Sequence record: MK327941.1
DNA length: 64,000 nucleotides
Source of the DNA: Escherichia phage vB_EcoM_G37-3
Direction: 5' to 3' (one strand)
In this document: positions 12,294 through 56,229 of the stretch, piece after piece
Layout: every line of letters begins with the position of its first letter
Numbering within the stretch: position 1 is the stretch's first letter
Position numbers and translations under genes: made by a program
The notes under the pieces: model-generated
The model's input: only the letters and a program-made list of their open reading frames with translations
Told to the model about the DNA's origin: nothing
Databases searched by the model: none

Positions 12294-12613
12294 ACATTAA
12301 ACTACACTACACAATGGGTAAAGCTAAGTTCCCAATGCAAAAGCATTACTATGGTCTACGTGCACAAGATCCAAAACTCTATGGTACTCATTGGTTTTGT
12401 AAACATGATAACCAATGGCACACATACGAAGAAATGCACGAGATGATGAAACAGGGTATTGAATTGAGTTATTCTAATTATGACCATCGTATAACTTGCA
12501 TTCGAAAATTGAAACGATGGATTCGTAAGAATCCGCAATTTAAAAACTTTGTGTTCTTTATGTCTCATGTTTATTTGGGACATAGCGTTACCGTCACAGC
12601 AAAGGTTAAATAA
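12281..12613 (+). CDS. hypothetical His/Cys/Trp-rich protein (110 aa)
   Basis: ORF track; begins MARVNI; stop overlaps next start (TAATG). Confidence 0.55.
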   Translation: MARVNIKLHYTMGKAKFPMQKHYYGLRAQDPKLYGTHWFCKHDNQWHTYEEMHEMMKQGIELSYSNYDHRITCIRKLKRWIRKNPQFKNFVFFMSHVYLGHSVTVTAKVK

Positions 12614-13452
12614 TGGCACGACTTTCTAAACAAGAACAAAAATTACACGATCGGGTGATGGAGTTGATTAATTCAGATCGCCCATTGACATATGAAGAAA
12701 AAGAATTTTGCTATAATAACTATCATGGCGATGGTCTAGGCGGTTCAGGTGCATTCTTTACCCCAGAAGGGCTTGCATGGGATTTTACCATCGATGCACA
12801 TTGCACAGGAAAAGTATTAGATCTTTGTGCTGGGATCGGTCGCTTATCTTTTTGTATGTTACATCGTTGTAAGCCAGAAAAGATCGTATGCGTCGAACTC
12901 AATCCAGAATTTGCGCGGATTGGCAAGCGACTATTACCGGAGGCAGAATGGATCACCAGCGATGTATTCGAATTTGAGTCAAACGAAAAATTCGATGTGG
13001 TGATCAGCAATCCACCCTTCGGGAAAATCAATACAACCGACACAAAGGATGTATTTGAGTACACTGGTGGCGAATTTGAATTTAAGGTTATGACATTAGG
13101 CCAGAAGTTTGCCGATGTAGGTTATTTTATTGTTCCTTCTGGTTCCGCTGGTTTTGCCTATTCCGGCAGACCTTATTATGACGGGACCATGAAGTCTAAT
13201 AAATATCTAAAATGGAGCAAACAAACTGGTTTGGTGACTTATGCCGGATGTGGGATCGATACATCAATCTATCGTGATGAATGGCATAGTACCAACGTTT
13301 TAACAGAAGTGGTTGAGGTTCGGTATTACGAGAAAGAAGCCGTAGAAGCGCCTAAATCACGTCCTAACGAACAAATAGAAGAAAGTAAGGAGATTACCTT
13401 ACCGAAACAGGAAAGCGAGTCTGGGACGCTCTCAGATTTGTTTGACATTTAA
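12613..13452 (+). CDS. AdoMet-dependent amino-methyltransferase, gamma-class N6-adenine DNA MTase-like
   Basis: 279 aa; motif X-like GAFFTPEG, motif I VLDLCAGIGRLS, motif IV VISNPPFGK in gamma-class order. Confidence 0.7.
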   Translation: MARLSKQEQKLHDRVMELINSDRPLTYEEKEFCYNNYHGDGLGGSGAFFTPEGLAWDFTIDAHCTGKVLDLCAGIGRLSFCMLHRCKPEKIVCVELNPEFARIGKRLLPEAEWITSDVFEFESNEKFDVVISNPPFGKINTTDTKDVFEYTGGEFEFKVMTLGQKFADVGYFIVPSGSAGFAYSGRPYYDGTMKSNKYLKWSKQTGLVTYAGCGIDTSIYRDEWHSTNVLTEVVEVRYYEKEAVEAPKSRPNEQIEESKEITLPKQESESGTLSDLFDI

Positions 13453-46305: not shown

Positions 46306-48009
46306 ATGCGCAAGGAAGCGGAAGAAAACCCGATTGATAAACTTAACAAATTAGATAAACTTGATTCTATTGATAATTTGCAAGCCGCTACCGAATTGGT
46401 GGCGGAGACAGTGGAACAAAAATCTAATGAAGTTGTTGGTGCGGTAGAGGATAACACCGCAGCCAATGAATTGACGGCAGAAAATACACAATCTACCGCT
46501 GGCAATACCCAAAAAACTTATGAAGAATTGCAAAAACTCAATAATTTCTCTTCTCAGATGAATGAGAAATTACGTGGTTTTGGTGTTATGATGGAACGTA
46601 GATTTGGTGTTGTCAGTAAAATGGCTAGCGGTATTGGTGCGATTGAAGAAGCATTGAAAAAACCGGAACAACCGCAAACAATGCCATCACCTCAGCCAGT
46701 TTTGCCTACTGTGCCGGAACAGCCTAATAATGACAACTATCAAGGTCTTCCAAAGAAAAAACCAGATGTTGAGGAACGGAAGAAAAAGAACGCCACAGAT
46801 AAGCGTAATGCAGATTCTATGGAAAATCTTCTTAAAGTTGTTCGTGGAGGATTTAAAGAAACCATAGGTATCTCTAATAAGGTCTTAGGGATGTTATTTA
46901 AGATCACTTTGACCGCTATGGCAGAAGCCGCAAAATGGGGTGCTATTTTGATGGGTATTGTTTTTGTCATTGATACCCTGATGGTTCATTTCAGATATTG
47001 GAGCGATTTATTCGAGACAAAGTTCAGTGAATTTATGGATAAGGCCGGAGAATGGGCTGGTCCTATTAGCGATATTTTAACTACTGTTCGTCAGGTTCGA
47101 GATTATTGGTCTAAAGGCGAATATGGGGAGTTAATTAAATCTCTTGTTATGGGTATTGGTGATGCATTCTATAAAACCTTTATCCAACTTGATCGAATTA
47201 TCACTACTGGTATTGCTAAAATTCTTCGCATGATCCCTGGTATGGGTGATTATGCCGATAAGTTAGAATATGGTGCTTTAAAATCTGCTGTCGCTCAAGG
47301 CTATACGCCAAATGAAAGAGAACTCGAATTAATGGATAAGATCGAGTCTGAACACGAAGAAGACAAATATGGAGAGCGCACAGGATGGACAGGAAAAGCC
47401 CGTGATATTGGCGAAGCTATTGGGGATTCTATTAAGGATAAAGTTAACGAAGGTCTTGTTAGTCTGGGCTGGAGAGATCAAAAGGATGTTGACGCAGAGA
47501 AACGACAAGAAGAATTAAAACGCGGGGAATATAAGTCTGTTTCTGCTGAACAACGATCTGCTAGTCGTAAACTTAGAATTAAAAGCGAGGGCGCGATCAA
47601 TAATATTAATGAAGTTATGGAGAATTTGAGCGGTGACTATGACAAAGAAAGAATGGGAGAGTTGAAAAAGGATATTGATGTTTACCGTGAGCAAGTTCAA
47701 GATCCTACATTAGTTGAAAGTGATCGTTCTCAGTTAGAGCGTCTTATTGAAAAATTTGATGAGATGTATGCTGATAAAACTAAGGGTGTGGTTCCAACTA
47801 ATCCTGTTCCTGCAACTGAAACGGAAACAGCAAAACAAGCGGAACGTACTGAACAAATGCAGAAACAAGCTGCAATCCAGCAACAAACGACAAATCAGAC
47901 CTCAAACGTAAATAATACACAAATTGTAACAAACAATAGAACTATTAAACAGGGTGCACCAACAACTAGAATTGATGCTCCCGGTACAATTAATATGGGG
48001 AACTTTTAA
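46306..48009 (+). CDS. 29: baseplate hub / tail length determinator gp29
   Basis: 567 aa (T4 590); hydrophobic segment and position. Confidence 0.7.
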   Translation: MRKEAEENPIDKLNKLDKLDSIDNLQAATELVAETVEQKSNEVVGAVEDNTAANELTAENTQSTAGNTQKTYEELQKLNNFSSQMNEKLRGFGVMMERRFGVVSKMASGIGAIEEALKKPEQPQTMPSPQPVLPTVPEQPNNDNYQGLPKKKPDVEERKKKNATDKRNADSMENLLKVVRGGFKETIGISNKVLGMLFKITLTAMAEAAKWGAILMGIVFVIDTLMVHFRYWSDLFETKFSEFMDKAGEWAGPISDILTTVRQVRDYWSKGEYGELIKSLVMGIGDAFYKTFIQLDRIITTGIAKILRMIPGMGDYADKLEYGALKSAVAQGYTPNERELELMDKIESEHEEDKYGERTGWTGKARDIGEAIGDSIKDKVNEGLVSLGWRDQKDVDAEKRQEELKRGEYKSVSAEQRSASRKLRIKSEGAINNINEVMENLSGDYDKERMGELKKDIDVYREQVQDPTLVESDRSQLERLIEKFDEMYADKTKGVVPTNPVPATETETAKQAERTEQMQKQAAIQQQTTNQTSNVNNTQIVTNNRTIKQGAPTTRIDAPGTINMGNF

Positions 48010-49067
48010 TGAAAATTAGTGTTATCAATGATGCCGTTGATAGCTTTAAAGCGGGGGTTAAAACCTCCGCTGGTTTTACCTCAAAAAATAAAGGGAAAAC
48101 ATTAACCGCTCAATTCCCCGCTGAACGTGCTAGCGGTAATGATGCTAGCGGTTATTATATCAACGACTTATATAATAATGGTCTGTTATTCACTGCATAC
48201 GATTATACATCTCGTACTACTGGTTCGTTGCGTGATTTCAGGAAAAAGAAAAATGTTGCTAGCGGTTTTGGCGGTAGCGTTAATATCGCTGGTTTTGATT
48301 TAAATTTGGGTGGGAGAAATGCTGCATTTGACCGAGAGGCAATTGCTAATATTCTTCTTCCTCGTAGTCAATCTGACGTTGACGCTGCTAGCCATAAGTT
48401 TAATGATGTTGGTGAATCTGTTATTTCTCGCGGTGGTGGTACTTTAGGCGGTGCTCTTTCTAATATGGCATCTACTGCCGTTTTTGGCGGTATCGAAAGT
48501 ATTACTGGTGGATACCTTGCCGATCACGGTGAGCAGATTTATAATACTGCGCGAAGTATGTATGCTGGTGCTGACGCACGAACTAAAAACTACGTATGGC
48601 ATCTAACCCCACGTAGTATTGAAGACCTTCGCAATATTCTGATCATATACGAAACGTTTTTAGAATTGTCTTATGGTTCTAGTGGTATTTCCAGCACCGC
48701 AAAAGAATTAAAAGCGGAAGTTGATGCGTGGTATAAAAATACACTATTGAGAAAATCCACCCCAGAGGAAGCGAAGAGAAATGATACTCTGTTTGAAGGG
48801 ATCACCGATTTTCTATCAAACGTAATTACTGTATCTAACCCGACAATATGGATGATCTCTAACTTCGGCAAGCGTACATCGTTTGAAGGGCGTAGCGATG
48901 CATTTGGTCCCGCTCAGATCTCAAGTGTACGTCTGGACAAGTCGCCTGATGGTAAGTTTAATGGCCTTGCTATTTCTCCTAACTTGCCGAGTACCTTTGT
49001 TCTGGAAGTATCATTTAGAGAGATCTTGACACTTTCCCGTGGTACTATATTTGGGAGTGCGGCATAA
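48009..49067 (+). CDS. 48: baseplate tail tube cap gp48
   Basis: 352 aa (T4 364); position. Confidence 0.75.
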   Translation: MKISVINDAVDSFKAGVKTSAGFTSKNKGKTLTAQFPAERASGNDASGYYINDLYNNGLLFTAYDYTSRTTGSLRDFRKKKNVASGFGGSVNIAGFDLNLGGRNAAFDREAIANILLPRSQSDVDAASHKFNDVGESVISRGGGTLGGALSNMASTAVFGGIESITGGYLADHGEQIYNTARSMYAGADARTKNYVWHLTPRSIEDLRNILIIYETFLELSYGSSGISSTAKELKAEVDAWYKNTLLRKSTPEEAKRNDTLFEGITDFLSNVITVSNPTIWMISNFGKRTSFEGRSDAFGPAQISSVRLDKSPDGKFNGLAISPNLPSTFVLEVSFREILTLSRGTIFGSAA

Positions 49068-53494: not shown

Positions 53495-53562
53495 TTTATA
53501 TCCTCTAGTTGATAACCTATAAACCTATATTTATGAAAACGGGGCTTAACGCCCCCTTTTTA

Positions 53563-53775
53563 TTATAATGCACCATCGAGCAATTGCTCTAAGGTGTATC
53601 CTGAATAGTCTTTTTCAATCAGGATATATTTTCCTACTCGTTTAATACAACCGCGCATTTCAACATATTCTGCGTAGTTGATGGTGCGAGTTGTTCCATC
53701 TTCTAGCAAAGCAGTACCGATTTCGTTAATGCGGTCATAAGTTACGTAGGTAATGATGATTTCGATGTTAGCCAT
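53563..53775 (-). CDS. hypothetical protein (70 aa from ATG 53775)
   Basis: Track ORF 53563..53841; start moved to internal ATG with AAGGAG SD because the upstream codons overlap the promoter element. Confidence 0.5.
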   Translation of the reverse strand: MANIEIIITYVTYDRINEIGTALLEDGTTRTINYAEYVEMRGCIKRVGKYILIEKDYSGYTLEQLLDGAL

Positions 53776-53809
53776 TTGATACTCCTTAGTAGTTCGTTTC
53801 GGTATGTGT

Positions 53810-53838
53810 ATTATAGGGGATCGATGATCCCCTGTCAA
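53810..53838 (-). promoter_or_regulatory. PeSL-like early promoter cassette: TTGACA, 17-nt palindromic spacer (ggggatc..gatcccc), TATAAT, conserved leader
   Basis: Reverse complement gives TTGACAggggatcatcgatccccTATAAT; A-tract upstream. Confidence 0.6.
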
Positions 53839-53846
53839 CAACTTTT

Positions 53847-54365
53847 TTAGTTATTTTTTAATTGCTCATCTTGCAATAGGGCAATCACATGCTGGCGATG
53901 TTCTTCCGATTGAGGCACACCGAAAAAGTTTGTTTTGTAGAAATACTCTAATCGGTCTTCTCGTGTGCTCTCTTCCATCATGATCGCGGGTAGTCCGAGA
54001 TTTCGGAAACGTCGCTTTTCTGCTGGCGTAAAATCACTGTAATACAACATAGAATCATCATTACCAGCAATGCTAAACTCATCTTTCATAAAGGAGAATA
54101 TTGCGTTTAAACGCTGTTTACCGTCCACGATTTCGATCTCATAGCGAGAGCCATCATCAATCTTAGCCATTGCGATAGCACCAACCGGAAAATCATTAAT
54201 CAGGTTTTCGATAAACATACGTTTGTTTTCGGTGTCCCATACCAAAGGACGCTGATAATCTGGGTTCATGTTGATATATCCATCTTCTAACCACGCCTCA
54301 TAAACAGAGATGACAAAGTTTTTAGTATTGGTATAGTAACGGCGTTTAGGCGTTAAACGGTTCAT
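53847..54365 (-). CDS. DUF262 / ParB-like nucleotide-binding domain protein
   Basis: Start at ATG 54365 (AGGAG SD); DYQRPLVWD..FIENL and VDGKQRLNAI match DUF262 hallmarks (QR, DGQQR-like). Confidence 0.55.
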   Translation of the reverse strand: MNRLTPKRRYYTNTKNFVISVYEAWLEDGYINMNPDYQRPLVWDTENKRMFIENLINDFPVGAIAMAKIDDGSRYEIEIVDGKQRLNAIFSFMKDEFSIAGNDDSMLYYSDFTPAEKRRFRNLGLPAIMMEESTREDRLEYFYKTNFFGVPQSEEHRQHVIALLQDEQLKNN

Positions 54366-54366
54366 G

Positions 54367-54699
54367 TTATAGTCTCCTGAATGGATCATCACGTAAATCA
54401 ATATCTTTTAAGAACTCATCCCATGAATGGCGGATATTGTTCTTAATTCTCCAGATAAGCGCAGGGATTGAACGCTCTCCCATCTGGAAGTATGGATCAT
54501 ATGATCCGTATGCCCAATATGCTACTACAATTCCACAATCAGAGCAATAGTATTCTATTTCACTTGCTGGCGACCAAAGTCCATCAATATGATCGGTGAT
54601 CTTGCTTTCGATGTTATGGCTATGACAATCAGGGCAACGGATGCAATGACCTTGTTTATCGTAATTTGACGTTAGCGAATACTTAAACAATCTCATCAT
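54367..54699 (-). CDS. hypothetical zinc-ribbon protein
   Basis: 110 aa; CIRCPDC..H and CSDCG Cys pairs; coupled to flanking genes. Confidence 0.55.
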   Translation of the reverse strand: MMRLFKYSLTSNYDKQGHCIRCPDCHSHNIESKITDHIDGLWSPASEIEYYCSDCGIVVAYWAYGSYDPYFQMGERSIPALIWRIKNNIRHSWDEFLKDIDLRDDPFRRL

Positions 54700-55412
54700 A
54701 GATCCTTATTGGCTTCAAATACTGCCTTTGCGAATCCTCGCGGGGTAAGTGACCTTATAGTCTTTGTTTTCGTTCCTTTCCCGCCTAGCTTAGAATGCTG
54801 TTTACTGTACCCTTTATTAATCTGCAAAGGTTTCTTTTCTGGCATCATAAAGCCTTGTCCGGTCCATAAGCAAGTCTTTTTCGGGTACATATCACGGGCG
54901 GCAATATACTCAGGAAACGTAGGATGCTTATCATCTTCCGGCAAATAACCGCCATATTCCCACGGATGAAACATATAATCAGGCTTACGCCACATGCTAG
55001 AGATAACGCTTACAGGATTCTCTATCATGTAGGGAACTCCTAGCCATTCACCCAAATAAGCGGTTATTTTAGCTGCCCGTACATCATGAACTTGAATCAA
55101 TGGTCCTTGTTCTCGTTTCTTTCGTTCAAAGTGCGCAGCGCCACTAACAGCTAAATTGGTGCACGGTGGGAATGCAAAGATAATATCCGGTTTCCCCCAT
55201 TCAAGGTCCATTGCTCTTTCCAGCCAGTTCAAATCAATCCATGTGTTTACATAGGTAATGTTTGGATGTTCAAATCTGGTATTATACTTTTTGTATGTGC
55301 CGTGGTCGCCATCATCAGCATTAAAGCAGATCACCTTATGACCTGCTTTAGCCCATTCTAGCCCCATTATCCCCGATCCGTCAAAGTTACAGAATATTAA
55401 TTTTTGTTTCAT
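54696..55412 (-). CDS. compact DNA (cytosine-5)-methyltransferase-like protein
   Basis: 238 aa; motif I-like FDGSGIMG, PC motif FAFPPCTNLAVSG, ENV-like YMIENPV, C-terminal RSLTPRGFAKAV. Confidence 0.55.
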   Translation of the reverse strand: MKQKLIFCNFDGSGIMGLEWAKAGHKVICFNADDGDHGTYKKYNTRFEHPNITYVNTWIDLNWLERAMDLEWGKPDIIFAFPPCTNLAVSGAAHFERKKREQGPLIQVHDVRAAKITAYLGEWLGVPYMIENPVSVISSMWRKPDYMFHPWEYGGYLPEDDKHPTFPEYIAARDMYPKKTCLWTGQGFMMPEKKPLQINKGYSKQHSKLGGKGTKTKTIRSLTPRGFAKAVFEANKDL

Positions 55413-55654
55413 ATACGCCCCTTTAATCCAACACAGATTTTAGAAGGTTCTTTGCCGTGCCACATTAAGTAAAGTCCGTTAATGCGGCCTTGTTTTGTAT
55501 ATGATTCTTTTCTGATCTTCTTATAGTGTCGTGTTTCCTCAGCCGATTGTTTAGAATACCAATCATAAAGGAAGATGAACAAAGGCCACCCATTAGCGGC
55601 CTTAATGCAGTTATTCAAAAATTCCTTATTGCGTTTAATTAATTTTCTTTTCAC
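55409..55654 (-). CDS. hypothetical protein (81 aa)
   Basis: ORF track; coupled overlaps. Confidence 0.5.
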   Translation of the reverse strand: MKRKLIKRNKEFLNNCIKAANGWPLFIFLYDWYSKQSAEETRHYKKIRKESYTKQGRINGLYLMWHGKEPSKICVGLKGRI

Positions 55655-55902
55655 GCTGCCCCCATTGGTTTGATAGTAACAGAATCTAAAAGACCTTTGT
55701 TAGCCAGTTCGCGGCAAGTTTTCAGATCCGCAACTTCCCAACCAGCCGCAATCAGGTTATCAATCAGGCTGTTAGCAACTTCTTCGCTCATGAAAGAGCA
55801 CTGTTTGCCGATGGTGTAGCGTACACGCTGTAATTTCAGTTTACGGAAGCCTTTAACGTTCAGGTCTTTAGCGATTTTCTTTGCGGTTTCGATGTTAGCC
55901 AT
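55651..55902 (-). CDS. hypothetical protein (83 aa)
   Basis: ORF track; GGAG SD; first gene after promoter cassette. Confidence 0.55.
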   Translation of the reverse strand: MANIETAKKIAKDLNVKGFRKLKLQRVRYTIGKQCSFMSEEVANSLIDNLIAAGWEVADLKTCRELANKGLLDSVTIKPMGAA

Positions 55903-55942
55903 TGTTTGATTCTCCTAAGTGGTATCTCGTCTTGATGGTTGT

Positions 55943-55971
55943 ATTGTAGGGGAGTTATCCTCCCCTGTCAA
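55943..55971 (-). promoter_or_regulatory. PeSL-like early promoter cassette (TTGACA, ggggag..ctcccc spacer, TACAAT)
   Basis: Read in sequence. Confidence 0.55.
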
Positions 55972-55985
55972 CACTTTTTATAAAA

Positions 55986-56153
55986 TTATTTGTTAATTTC
56001 TGGTGCGTTGCTAGGATAGTAACCTTCTTTAACACCCAGATATTTTGCAACCATCCCTACAATCTTCTGTGCTACTACAATGTCAAATTTCAGATAATCT
56101 TCGCCGTGGGTTTCAATGATATATGCTTCACATGCTGCTTTAGTCTCGAACAT
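55986..56153 (-). CDS. hypothetical small protein (55 aa), copy 1 of a duplicated gene
   Basis: MFETKAACEAYIIETHGEDYLKFDIVVAQKIVGMVAKYLGVKEGYYPSNAPEINK; about 89% identical to 59246..59413. Confidence 0.55.
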   Translation of the reverse strand: MFETKAACEAYIIETHGEDYLKFDIVVAQKIVGMVAKYLGVKEGYYPSNAPEINK

Positions 56154-56186
56154 TTTGATTCTCCTATTTCGTTTCGTTATGTGTGT

Positions 56187-56215
56187 ATTATAGGGGATCT
56201 CCCGATCCCCGTCAA
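56187..56215 (-). promoter_or_regulatory. PeSL-like early promoter cassette (TTGACG, ggggatc..gatcccc spacer, TATAAT)
   Basis: Read in sequence. Confidence 0.55.
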
Positions 56216-56229
56216 CAACTTTTTTAAAA

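Follow-up and report, generated by a model that had tools for sequence, protein, structure and literature searches.

The 64,000-nucleotide stretch of Escherichia phage vB_EcoM_G37-3 analysed here (sequence record MK327941.1; hereafter the window) contains a run of five minus-strand open reading frames (ORFs), the third of which encodes a 238-residue protein with the predicted fold and the catalytic motifs of a cytosine-C5 DNA methyltransferase (C5-MTase). Region 53500-56200 of the window is 97.5-98.7% identical to RB49-like Krischvirus (Straboviridae) phages, including RB49, Sf20, TB34, SAP, KFS-EC and others, and by its sequence the window can be placed in an RB49-like Krischvirus, a T4-type phage. 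The region is matched by 63 phage records, 56 of which cover at least 80% of it. The five ORFs are the counterparts of RB49p190, p189.1, p189, p188 and p187 in the RefSeq RB49 record (Table 1), in which they share their strand with the Alt-like ADP-ribosyltransferase gene and are found just beyond it, and in which p189 carries the annotation "DNA methyltransferase". The sequences of this operon are already public and annotated in RB49-like genomes, and the operon is ordinary phage accessory cargo.

The five genes form a translationally coupled operon between two promoter-early stem-loop (PeSL) cassettes. A preliminary description of this DNA, made from the sequence alone, had announced five coupled reverse-strand ORFs, and all of them were recovered. 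The stop of ORF1 and the start of ORF2 share a GTGA overlap (55654/55651), ATGA overlaps are found at the ORF2/ORF3 (55412/55409) and ORF3/ORF4 (54699/54696) junctions, and a 1-base gap separates the ORF4 stop from the ATG of ORF5 at 54365. A mechanical reading of ORF5 reaches back to a TTG at 54401; the ATG is preceded by the Shine-Dalgarno sequence CAGGAGA and is the start annotated in RB49. Purine-rich Shine-Dalgarno sequences stand ahead of all five ORFs. Each ORF matches a PHROG family (E about 1e-34 to 2e-90), and the differences from RB49 are mainly synonymous, with 15 synonymous and 3 non-synonymous changes in ORF3, 9 and 2 in ORF5, and 2 and 0 in ORF1. Therefore, the five ORFs are real genes, and the gene of the methyltransferase-like protein is under purifying selection.

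Table 1. Features of the operon and its flanking promoter-early stem-loop (PeSL) cassettes, in window positions.
Feature	Position	Strand	Description	Best match
Upstream PeSL cassette	55903..55985	-	predicted sigma-70 early promoter, spacer stem-loop, Shine-Dalgarno of ORF1	
ORF1	55651..55902	-	83 aa, RB49p190 homologue	PHROG 14908, E 5e-59
ORF2	55409..55654	-	81 aa, RB49p189.1 homologue, GTG start	PHROG 7065, E 6e-38
ORF3	54696..55412	-	238 aa, RB49p189 homologue, compact C5-MTase-fold protein	PHROG 757, E 2e-90
ORF4	54367..54699	-	110 aa, RB49p188 homologue, putative zinc-ribbon protein	PHROG 2993, E 8e-34
ORF5	53847..54365	-	172 aa, RB49p187 homologue, stand-alone DUF262 domain	Pfam GmrSD_N, E 4e-20
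Downstream PeSL cassette	53776..53846	-	TTGACA-17-TATAAT at 53838-53810, stem GGGGATC/GATCCCC	

The single promoter cassette that had been proposed for the operon is confirmed. Its -35 hexamer TTGACA (55971-55966) and -10 hexamer TACAAT (55948-55943) are separated by a 17-nt spacer (55965-55949) that is filled by the inverted repeat GGGGAG/CTCCCC, and the Shine-Dalgarno sequence of ORF1, TAGGAGA, lies at 55917-55911. The element scored 11 of 12 in the promoter scan, and its RNA fold of -19.4 kcal/mol has a z of -5.1 against shuffled sequence; the corresponding z for the downstream cassette is -4.1. Five copies of the promoter-plus-stem pattern are present on the minus strand of the window, compared with 0.00 expected. 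Promoter-like and terminator-like matches inside the operon were disregarded because their frequency is no higher than in shuffled sequences.

These elements share their anatomy with the PeSLs of phages RB49 and phi1 (Arbiol et al. 2010, PMC2839356; PMC4122927), namely an AT-rich upstream segment, sigma-70 -35 and -10 hexamers with a G-run/C-run stem-loop between them, a Shine-Dalgarno sequence and a start codon. The PeSLs of RB49 and phi1 are strong sigma-70 promoters that also serve as terminators or attenuators, with termination seen in a reporter assay, and they mediate gene shuffling within the hyperplastic regions of these phages (PMC2839356). The published examples carry single ORFans, whereas the G37-3 cassette holds five genes; otherwise there is no material difference. 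The downstream cassette probably attenuates or terminates the operon transcript and also provides the promoter for the gene that follows (53563-53775). The gene content of the neighbouring loci varies between isolates exactly at the PeSLs. RB49p186 is missing from G37-3 between ORF5 and the p185 homologue, at the PeSL junction at 53776-53846, and the p191 and p193 homologues have no RB49p192 between them, at the junction at 56154-56229. The presence or absence of p192 is the same polymorphism that illustrates PeSL-mediated shuffling between RB49 and phi1 (PMC2839356).

The C5-MTase hallmarks noticed in the 238-residue protein (p189) withstand closer analysis. FDGSGIMG, FPPCTNLAVSG and IENPV are all present, supplying motif I (F10-D-G-S-G14), Cys84 within FPPC and Glu131 within IENPV, and a further motif, R220-S-L-T-P-R-G226, is located at the C-terminus. 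In a statistically weak alignment of the family profile to M.HaeIII, FDGSG falls opposite LFSGAGG and FPPC opposite PPCQ; in a weak hhalign alignment to Escherichia coli Dcm (E 0.018), FPPC...IENPV falls opposite FPCQ...LENV. The alignments to sequences of the Protein Data Bank (PDB) were used solely for motif register; motifs I, IV and VI are in register with both enzymes. The AlphaFold model (predicted local distance difference test, pLDDT, 87.9), a check that the preliminary description had proposed, is a class I Rossmann-like methyltransferase that is closest to known C5-MTases. The only strong profile match is to PHROG 757 ("DNA methyltransferase"); PADLOC yields weak matches to Type II methyltransferases.

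Conservation of the motifs was evaluated in 51 diverse family members that are 29-52% identical to p189. C84, E131, P133, P150, Y176, W183 and P191 show no variation, and F81, P82, T85, G91, K99, N132, R142, K178, T180, R220, S221, T223, P224 and G226 show almost none. In motif VI, the glutamate is present in 51/51 and the asparagine in 48/51 members. The protein is indeed compact and without an obvious target-recognition domain: the sizeable domain that C5-MTases have between motifs VIII and IX is not found, and the part between motif VI and the C-terminal helix is just a conserved insert some 75 residues long (about 145-220). Both fold and conservation support the view that p189 has a C5-cytosine-MTase fold and its catalytic motifs together with a minimal target-recognition region.

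In p189, motif I (FxGxG-like) is followed by the Pro-Cys of motif IV, an ENV-like motif VI and, at the C-terminus, a helix resembling motif X. This order is the same as in M.HhaI, M.HaeIII, E. coli Dcm and the catalytic domain of DNMT3A/B, and a very small target-recognition region is shared with DNMT3. Compared with the canonical enzymes, however, the compact proteins differ in several respects. Bacterial C5-MTases comprise about 320-480 residues, the canonical motif IV GxPCQxFSxAG is replaced by FPPCT(D/N)LAVSG, and the canonical ENV of motif VI is replaced by ENP. Moreover, the insert between motif VI and the C-terminal helix, to which the invariant P150, Y176, W183 and P191 belong, is specific to the family.

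This compact family is large: clustering at 90% identity yields 7,309 clusters, and at 50% identity there are 1,987 representatives (E up to 1e-3). Nearly all of the listed members are 200-260 residues long. Searches by tblastn located its members in 1,581 phage records, where the usual annotation is "DNA methyltransferase" or "Dcm". Among these phages are Dhillonvirus, Webervirus and other Drexlerviridae, Vequintavirus-like and Seunavirus-like myoviruses, and phages of Vibrio, Flavobacterium, Rhizobium and Xanthomonas. Therefore p189 itself is no oddity of G37-3, and the only novelty here is that the compact clade is experimentally uncharacterised. Among ten longer members inspected for fusions, one was informative: in a metagenomic protein of 563 residues (P0259), an N-terminal compact C5-MTase-like domain is fused to a C-terminal D12-class Dam adenine methyltransferase, a fusion that speaks for DNA as substrate.

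A possible clue to the specificity of the family, albeit a circumstantial one, comes from Klebsiella phage KP36. Its gp74 (47552-48244, 230 aa) is a family member with 47% identity to p189 (E 4e-70). KP36 DNA, with 155 CCWGG sites, is uncut by EcoRII; the 2013 study that found this stated that the phage has no cytosine methyltransferase and credited the resistance to host Dcm (PMC3620542). CCWGG is not depleted in the KP36 genome (observed/expected ratio, O/E, 0.99), and GGWCC, GGCGCC and CCCGGG are absent from it.

The last protein of the operon, p187, is a stand-alone DUF262 domain (PF03235; ParB/Srx-fold, GmrS-like). The DUF262 call of the preliminary description is borne out by a Pfam GmrSD_N score of 73 bits against a cut-off of 33, by the motif D81-G-K-Q-R85 (DGQQR-type) and by the AlphaFold model (pLDDT 87.6), whose fold matches BrxU and SspE. 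The analogy that had been drawn to GmrSD-type nucleases fails, in that p187 is a single domain of 172 residues in which no DUF1524/HNH nuclease domain was found and no nuclease family was matched by any of the five proteins. Thus p187 is not a GmrSD enzyme, and it is probably a nucleotide-binding protein rather than a nuclease. PADLOC relates it to NsnA (E 1e-20) and PD-T4-2_A (E 5e-12), and some deposited records name its relatives a DefenseFinder protein. Stand-alone relatives of about 160-180 residues are present in RB16, Slopekvirus PMBT1, ST64B and metagenomes. Accordingly, p187 differs from GmrSD, BrxU and SspE in having neither a DUF1524/HNH nuclease nor any second domain, in being encoded by a phage, where it would be expressed early, and in belonging to this stand-alone clade.

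For the remaining three proteins, less can be said. The cysteines of ORF4 (p188) are arranged as CxxCxxC ... CxxC, so that the pairs behind the earlier zinc-ribbon call are present; no Pfam zinc-ribbon family reaches its cut-off, with Zn_Ribbon_TF (E 5e-4) scoring best. Its designation as a putative zinc-ribbon protein is thus weakly supported by its sequence. PHROG 2993, to which it belongs, also occurs in Nonagvirus and Felixounavirus. ORF1 and ORF2 gave no informative matches in Pfam, PHROG or NCBIfam. Residues 12-75 of ORF1 have a weak local PADLOC match (E 2.6e-5) to positions 722-785 of RT_UG35, a defence-associated reverse transcriptase.

To evaluate the linkage of the genes, we examined 80 diverse IMG/VR loci that encode a compact methyltransferase of 44-64% identity (median length 11.3 kb, together 0.91 Mb), searching all six-frame ORFs with the DUF262 profile and with the four other proteins. 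None of the 80 loci carries a DUF262, zinc-ribbon, p190 or p189.1 relative at distances of up to 8 kb, and the profiles recovered every positive control. Conversely, no compact methyltransferase was found near the DUF262 homologues at six loci outside Krischvirus (RB16, PMBT1, ST64B and three metagenomic contigs), nor near the zinc-ribbon homologues of Nonagvirus JenP2 and Felixounavirus SP116. In Seunavirus SSE121 the compact methyltransferase lies in the replication region, and in Phagiculus-like siphovirus contigs it is found between tail tube and tail assembly chaperone genes; neither context includes the operon partners. A restriction endonuclease-like neighbour of p189 was also sought in the cassette with Pfam, PHROG, NCBIfam and PADLOC, and none was found. 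The compact methyltransferase is therefore an orphan in G37-3 and in the other phages examined, not part of a Type II restriction-modification system, and it resembles other phage orphan methyltransferases in having no cognate nuclease.

Outside Krischvirus, then, the three recognisable genes occur apart, which gives no support to the modification or anti-defence module envisaged in the preliminary description. On balance, the linkage of methyltransferase, DUF262 and zinc-ribbon genes is specific to Krischvirus, and its best explanation is that PeSLs brought independent accessory genes together. ORFs of about 110 residues upstream of the DUF262 gene in RB16 and in the metagenomic phage contig L015 were tested as diverged zinc-ribbon homologues, and they are not. 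In L015 (3453-5007), a stand-alone DUF262 gene whose product is 46% identical to p187 overlaps the 3' end of a gene for a 357-residue protein that weakly matches N6_N4 methyltransferases in Pfam (E 1e-3) and PHROG (E 4e-4). This protein was tested for membership in the compact family and is not a member; the contig hints at a second, independent arrangement of DUF262 beside a methyltransferase. In phages, fusions of ParB-fold with DNA methyltransferase domains are frequent (PMC12704722), and a phage thymine dioxygenase requires a ParB-like partner on double-stranded DNA (PMC13229309). Like these ParB-N6_N4 methyltransferase fusions and ParB-dependent 5mYOX thymine dioxygenases, the G37-3 operon places a ParB-superfamily domain beside a predicted DNA base-modifying enzyme in a phage. 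In contrast to them, p187 is a DUF262 (PF03235) and not a ParBc (PF02195) domain, it is encoded by a separate gene, and its pairing with a methyltransferase is confined to Krischvirus.

We tentatively conclude, with somewhat better than even confidence, that the operon is an early PeSL-driven cassette of a hyperplastic region, with p189 as an autonomous orphan C5-cytosine DNA methyltransferase and the other four genes as unrelated passengers. Soon after infection, host sigma-70 RNA polymerase would transcribe the five genes from the upstream PeSL, the overlapping stops and starts would couple their translation, and the stem-loop of the next PeSL would attenuate the transcript. By analogy with the canonical C5-MTase mechanism, motif I (FDGSG) and residue 31, the latter in most relatives an Asp that probably contacts the cofactor ribose, would hold S-adenosylmethionine, Cys84 of the Pro-Cys motif would attack C6 of the flipped-out cytosine, Glu131 of the ENV-type motif would protonate N3, and the methyl group would go to C5. 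The short conserved insert (about residues 145-220) may replace the usual target-recognition domain. The likely role of p189 would be to methylate phage DNA pre-emptively at specific sites, so that it escapes some of the restriction enzymes of the host. The other products (two small proteins, a putative zinc-ribbon protein and the DUF262 protein) would come from independent accessory genes on the same transcript.

Several observations weigh against this conclusion. The Pfam check that had been suggested for p189 does return DNA_methylase (PF00145), albeit with 14.6 bits, below the cut-off of 22, and over residues 10-100 only; with this sub-threshold score and no target-recognition domain, p189 belongs to PF00145 only in part. 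No NCBIfam model matches p189 or any other of the five proteins, and no significant match was obtained when PDB sequences were searched by phmmer and hmmsearch with p189 and with two family profiles. At position 31, where 47/51 relatives have Asp, p189 and the Krischvirus group have Asn. In the literature we found no characterised member of the compact family and none with demonstrated activity. As for the phage DNA itself, HpaII and NheI both cut the virion DNA of RB49, which is without a hydroxymethylase pathway (PMC4041780), and TB34 grown on DH5-alpha showed no detectable modified nucleoside by high-performance liquid chromatography-mass spectrometry (HPLC-MS; PMC13390438). Since the operon region of TB34 is 98.6% identical to the G37-3 window at the DNA level, any methylation must be sparse, transient, or not on virion DNA. 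The HPLC-MS analysis was evidently silent on host Dam and Dcm marks too, and sparse site-specific methylation is therefore still compatible with it.

Restriction-site counts, obtained in the closest full genome (OZ035808.1, 162 kb), point in the same direction, because many sites are already wholly avoided. GAATTC, AAGCTT, GGATCC, CCGCGG, AGTACT, CAGCTG, GGTACC, CCATGG, GCATGC and GGSCC are absent both from this genome and from the window, and ACCGGT is likewise absent from the genome, in which 17-45 copies of each would be expected. TCCGGA occurs 3 times versus 64 expected, and O/E values are 0.40 for CCWGG, about 0.4 for CCSGG and 0.48 for GGCC; CCGG and GATC are not depleted. The pattern recurs in the window. 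The 2.5-fold depletion of CCWGG argues that this site is not reliably protected in G37-3. When the genome was checked for a footprint of 5-methylcytosine (5mC) deamination, the deamination products of CCWGG were not in excess, implying that the depletion reflects restriction avoidance rather than methylation-driven decay. Such extreme avoidance fits a T4-type phage with unmodified cytosine. Since site avoidance is the main passive anti-restriction strategy, methylation by p189 can be only an adjunct to it, and the suggestion in the preliminary description that the phage relies on methylation is unproven, given that RB49 is cut, TB34 is unmodified and the genome avoids sites.

The translational coupling of the genes and the retention of the block in 56/63 matching Krischvirus-type records could also be read as signs of a cooperative module, in which p189 needs the DUF262 protein, and perhaps the zinc-ribbon protein, for loading or activation on double-stranded DNA. 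The ParB-methyltransferase fusions, the ParB-dependent dioxygenase and the overlapping gene pair of L015 would be precedents for such an arrangement. We nevertheless regard it as unlikely: none of the 80 methyltransferase loci has the partners, the methyltransferase stands alone in the Seunavirus and Phagiculus-like contexts, DUF262 and zinc-ribbon relatives occur elsewhere without a compact methyltransferase nearby, and PeSL shuffling readily juxtaposes unrelated genes (PMC2839356). An extended form, in which a broad-acting p189 together with the DUF262 and zinc-ribbon proteins constitutes a conditional post-replicative cytosine-modification or anti-Type-IV module, seems very improbable to us. 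It would offer a possible entry to the pathway of SAP, a phage 99.96% identical to TB34, for which 5-hydroxymethyldeoxycytidine (5hmdC) and alpha-glucosyl-5hmdC have been reported with the pathway unexplained, the published analysis of SAP/TB34 single-nucleotide polymorphisms having given no leads (PMC13390438). SAP is without dCMP hydroxymethylase and the known glucosyltransferases. Comparison of SAP with TB34 over 7 kb around the operon shows five identical coding sequences, a 79-bp tandem PeSL duplication just past the DUF262 stop (window about 53776-53846), which gives SAP two promoters ahead of the next gene, and four indels of a single base (T), none of them within an operon gene. Because the coding sequences are identical, the operon sequence was rejected as the cause of the difference in modification.

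The same identity of coding sequences in modified SAP and unmodified TB34 bears on the idea that p189 directs its C5 chemistry to tRNA or other RNA (like Dnmt2) or to host DNA, or transfers a non-methyl group (like the carboxymethyltransferase CmoX) as the first step of hypermodification. While the lack of reported bulk 5mC in RB49 and TB34 virion DNA and the modified cytosines of SAP would suit it, this idea appears improbable, considering also that Pfam, PHROG and NCBIfam reveal no cofactor-synthesis, dioxygenase or glycosyltransferase gene in the cassette, that one family member is fused to Dam, and that its motifs IV (PC) and VI (ENV) follow the DNA and not the RNA m5C type. Another reading makes p187 the key protein, either as a nuclease-less decoy that poisons host GmrSD/BrxU-type modification-dependent enzymes before they attack methylated phage DNA or as a component of a phage-borne exclusion system. 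In fold and motif it corresponds to the NTPase domain at the N-terminus of BrxU and SspE, the PADLOC matches and the DefenseFinder label of some relatives point to defence proteins, BrxU cleaves 5mC DNA (PMC13390438), and the stand-alone clade is conserved in several T4-type and temperate phages. On the other hand, p187 is not linked to the methyltransferase outside Krischvirus, the cassette has no partner nuclease, and TB34 carries the gene, yet its BrxU resistance is explained simply by unmodified DNA. We consider this reading about as unlikely as the cooperative module, and it can coexist with an orphan methyltransferase. Least probable of all is that the p189 gene is an inactive relic carried in a hyperplastic region; the sub-threshold Pfam score, the Asn at position 31 and the unmodified DNA of TB34 would be expected of one, whereas the invariant catalytic Cys and Glu, the predominance of synonymous changes from RB49, the retention of the gene across Krischvirus isolates and the confident, intact predicted fold would not.

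If p189 is an orphan cytosine methyltransferase, its significance extends beyond this operon. The compact clade, with about 230 residues and thousands of members among phages of enterobacteria, Klebsiella, Vibrio and other hosts, is matched above threshold by no Pfam or NCBIfam model and is without a solved structure. Knowledge of the sequence that it targets would shed light on restriction escape in many therapeutic phage genera (Dhillonvirus, Webervirus, Drexlerviridae, Vequintavirus, Krischvirus), and would also reveal how small a protein suffices for sequence-specific or non-specific cytosine methylation. p189 is also the natural first candidate for the puzzle of the hypermodified cytosines of SAP, yet the operon is identical in modified and unmodified isolates.

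Within the 64-kb window, p189 is the only cytosine-C5-directed enzyme identified. A second methyltransferase gene, the homologue of RB49p143 (12613-13452, plus strand, 279 aa), is located among late baseplate genes between gp8 and gp9. Its Pfam matches to MTS (1e-9), Methyltransf_25 and Eco57I (1e-6) suggest an amino-methyltransferase-like enzyme that may act on DNA or rRNA.

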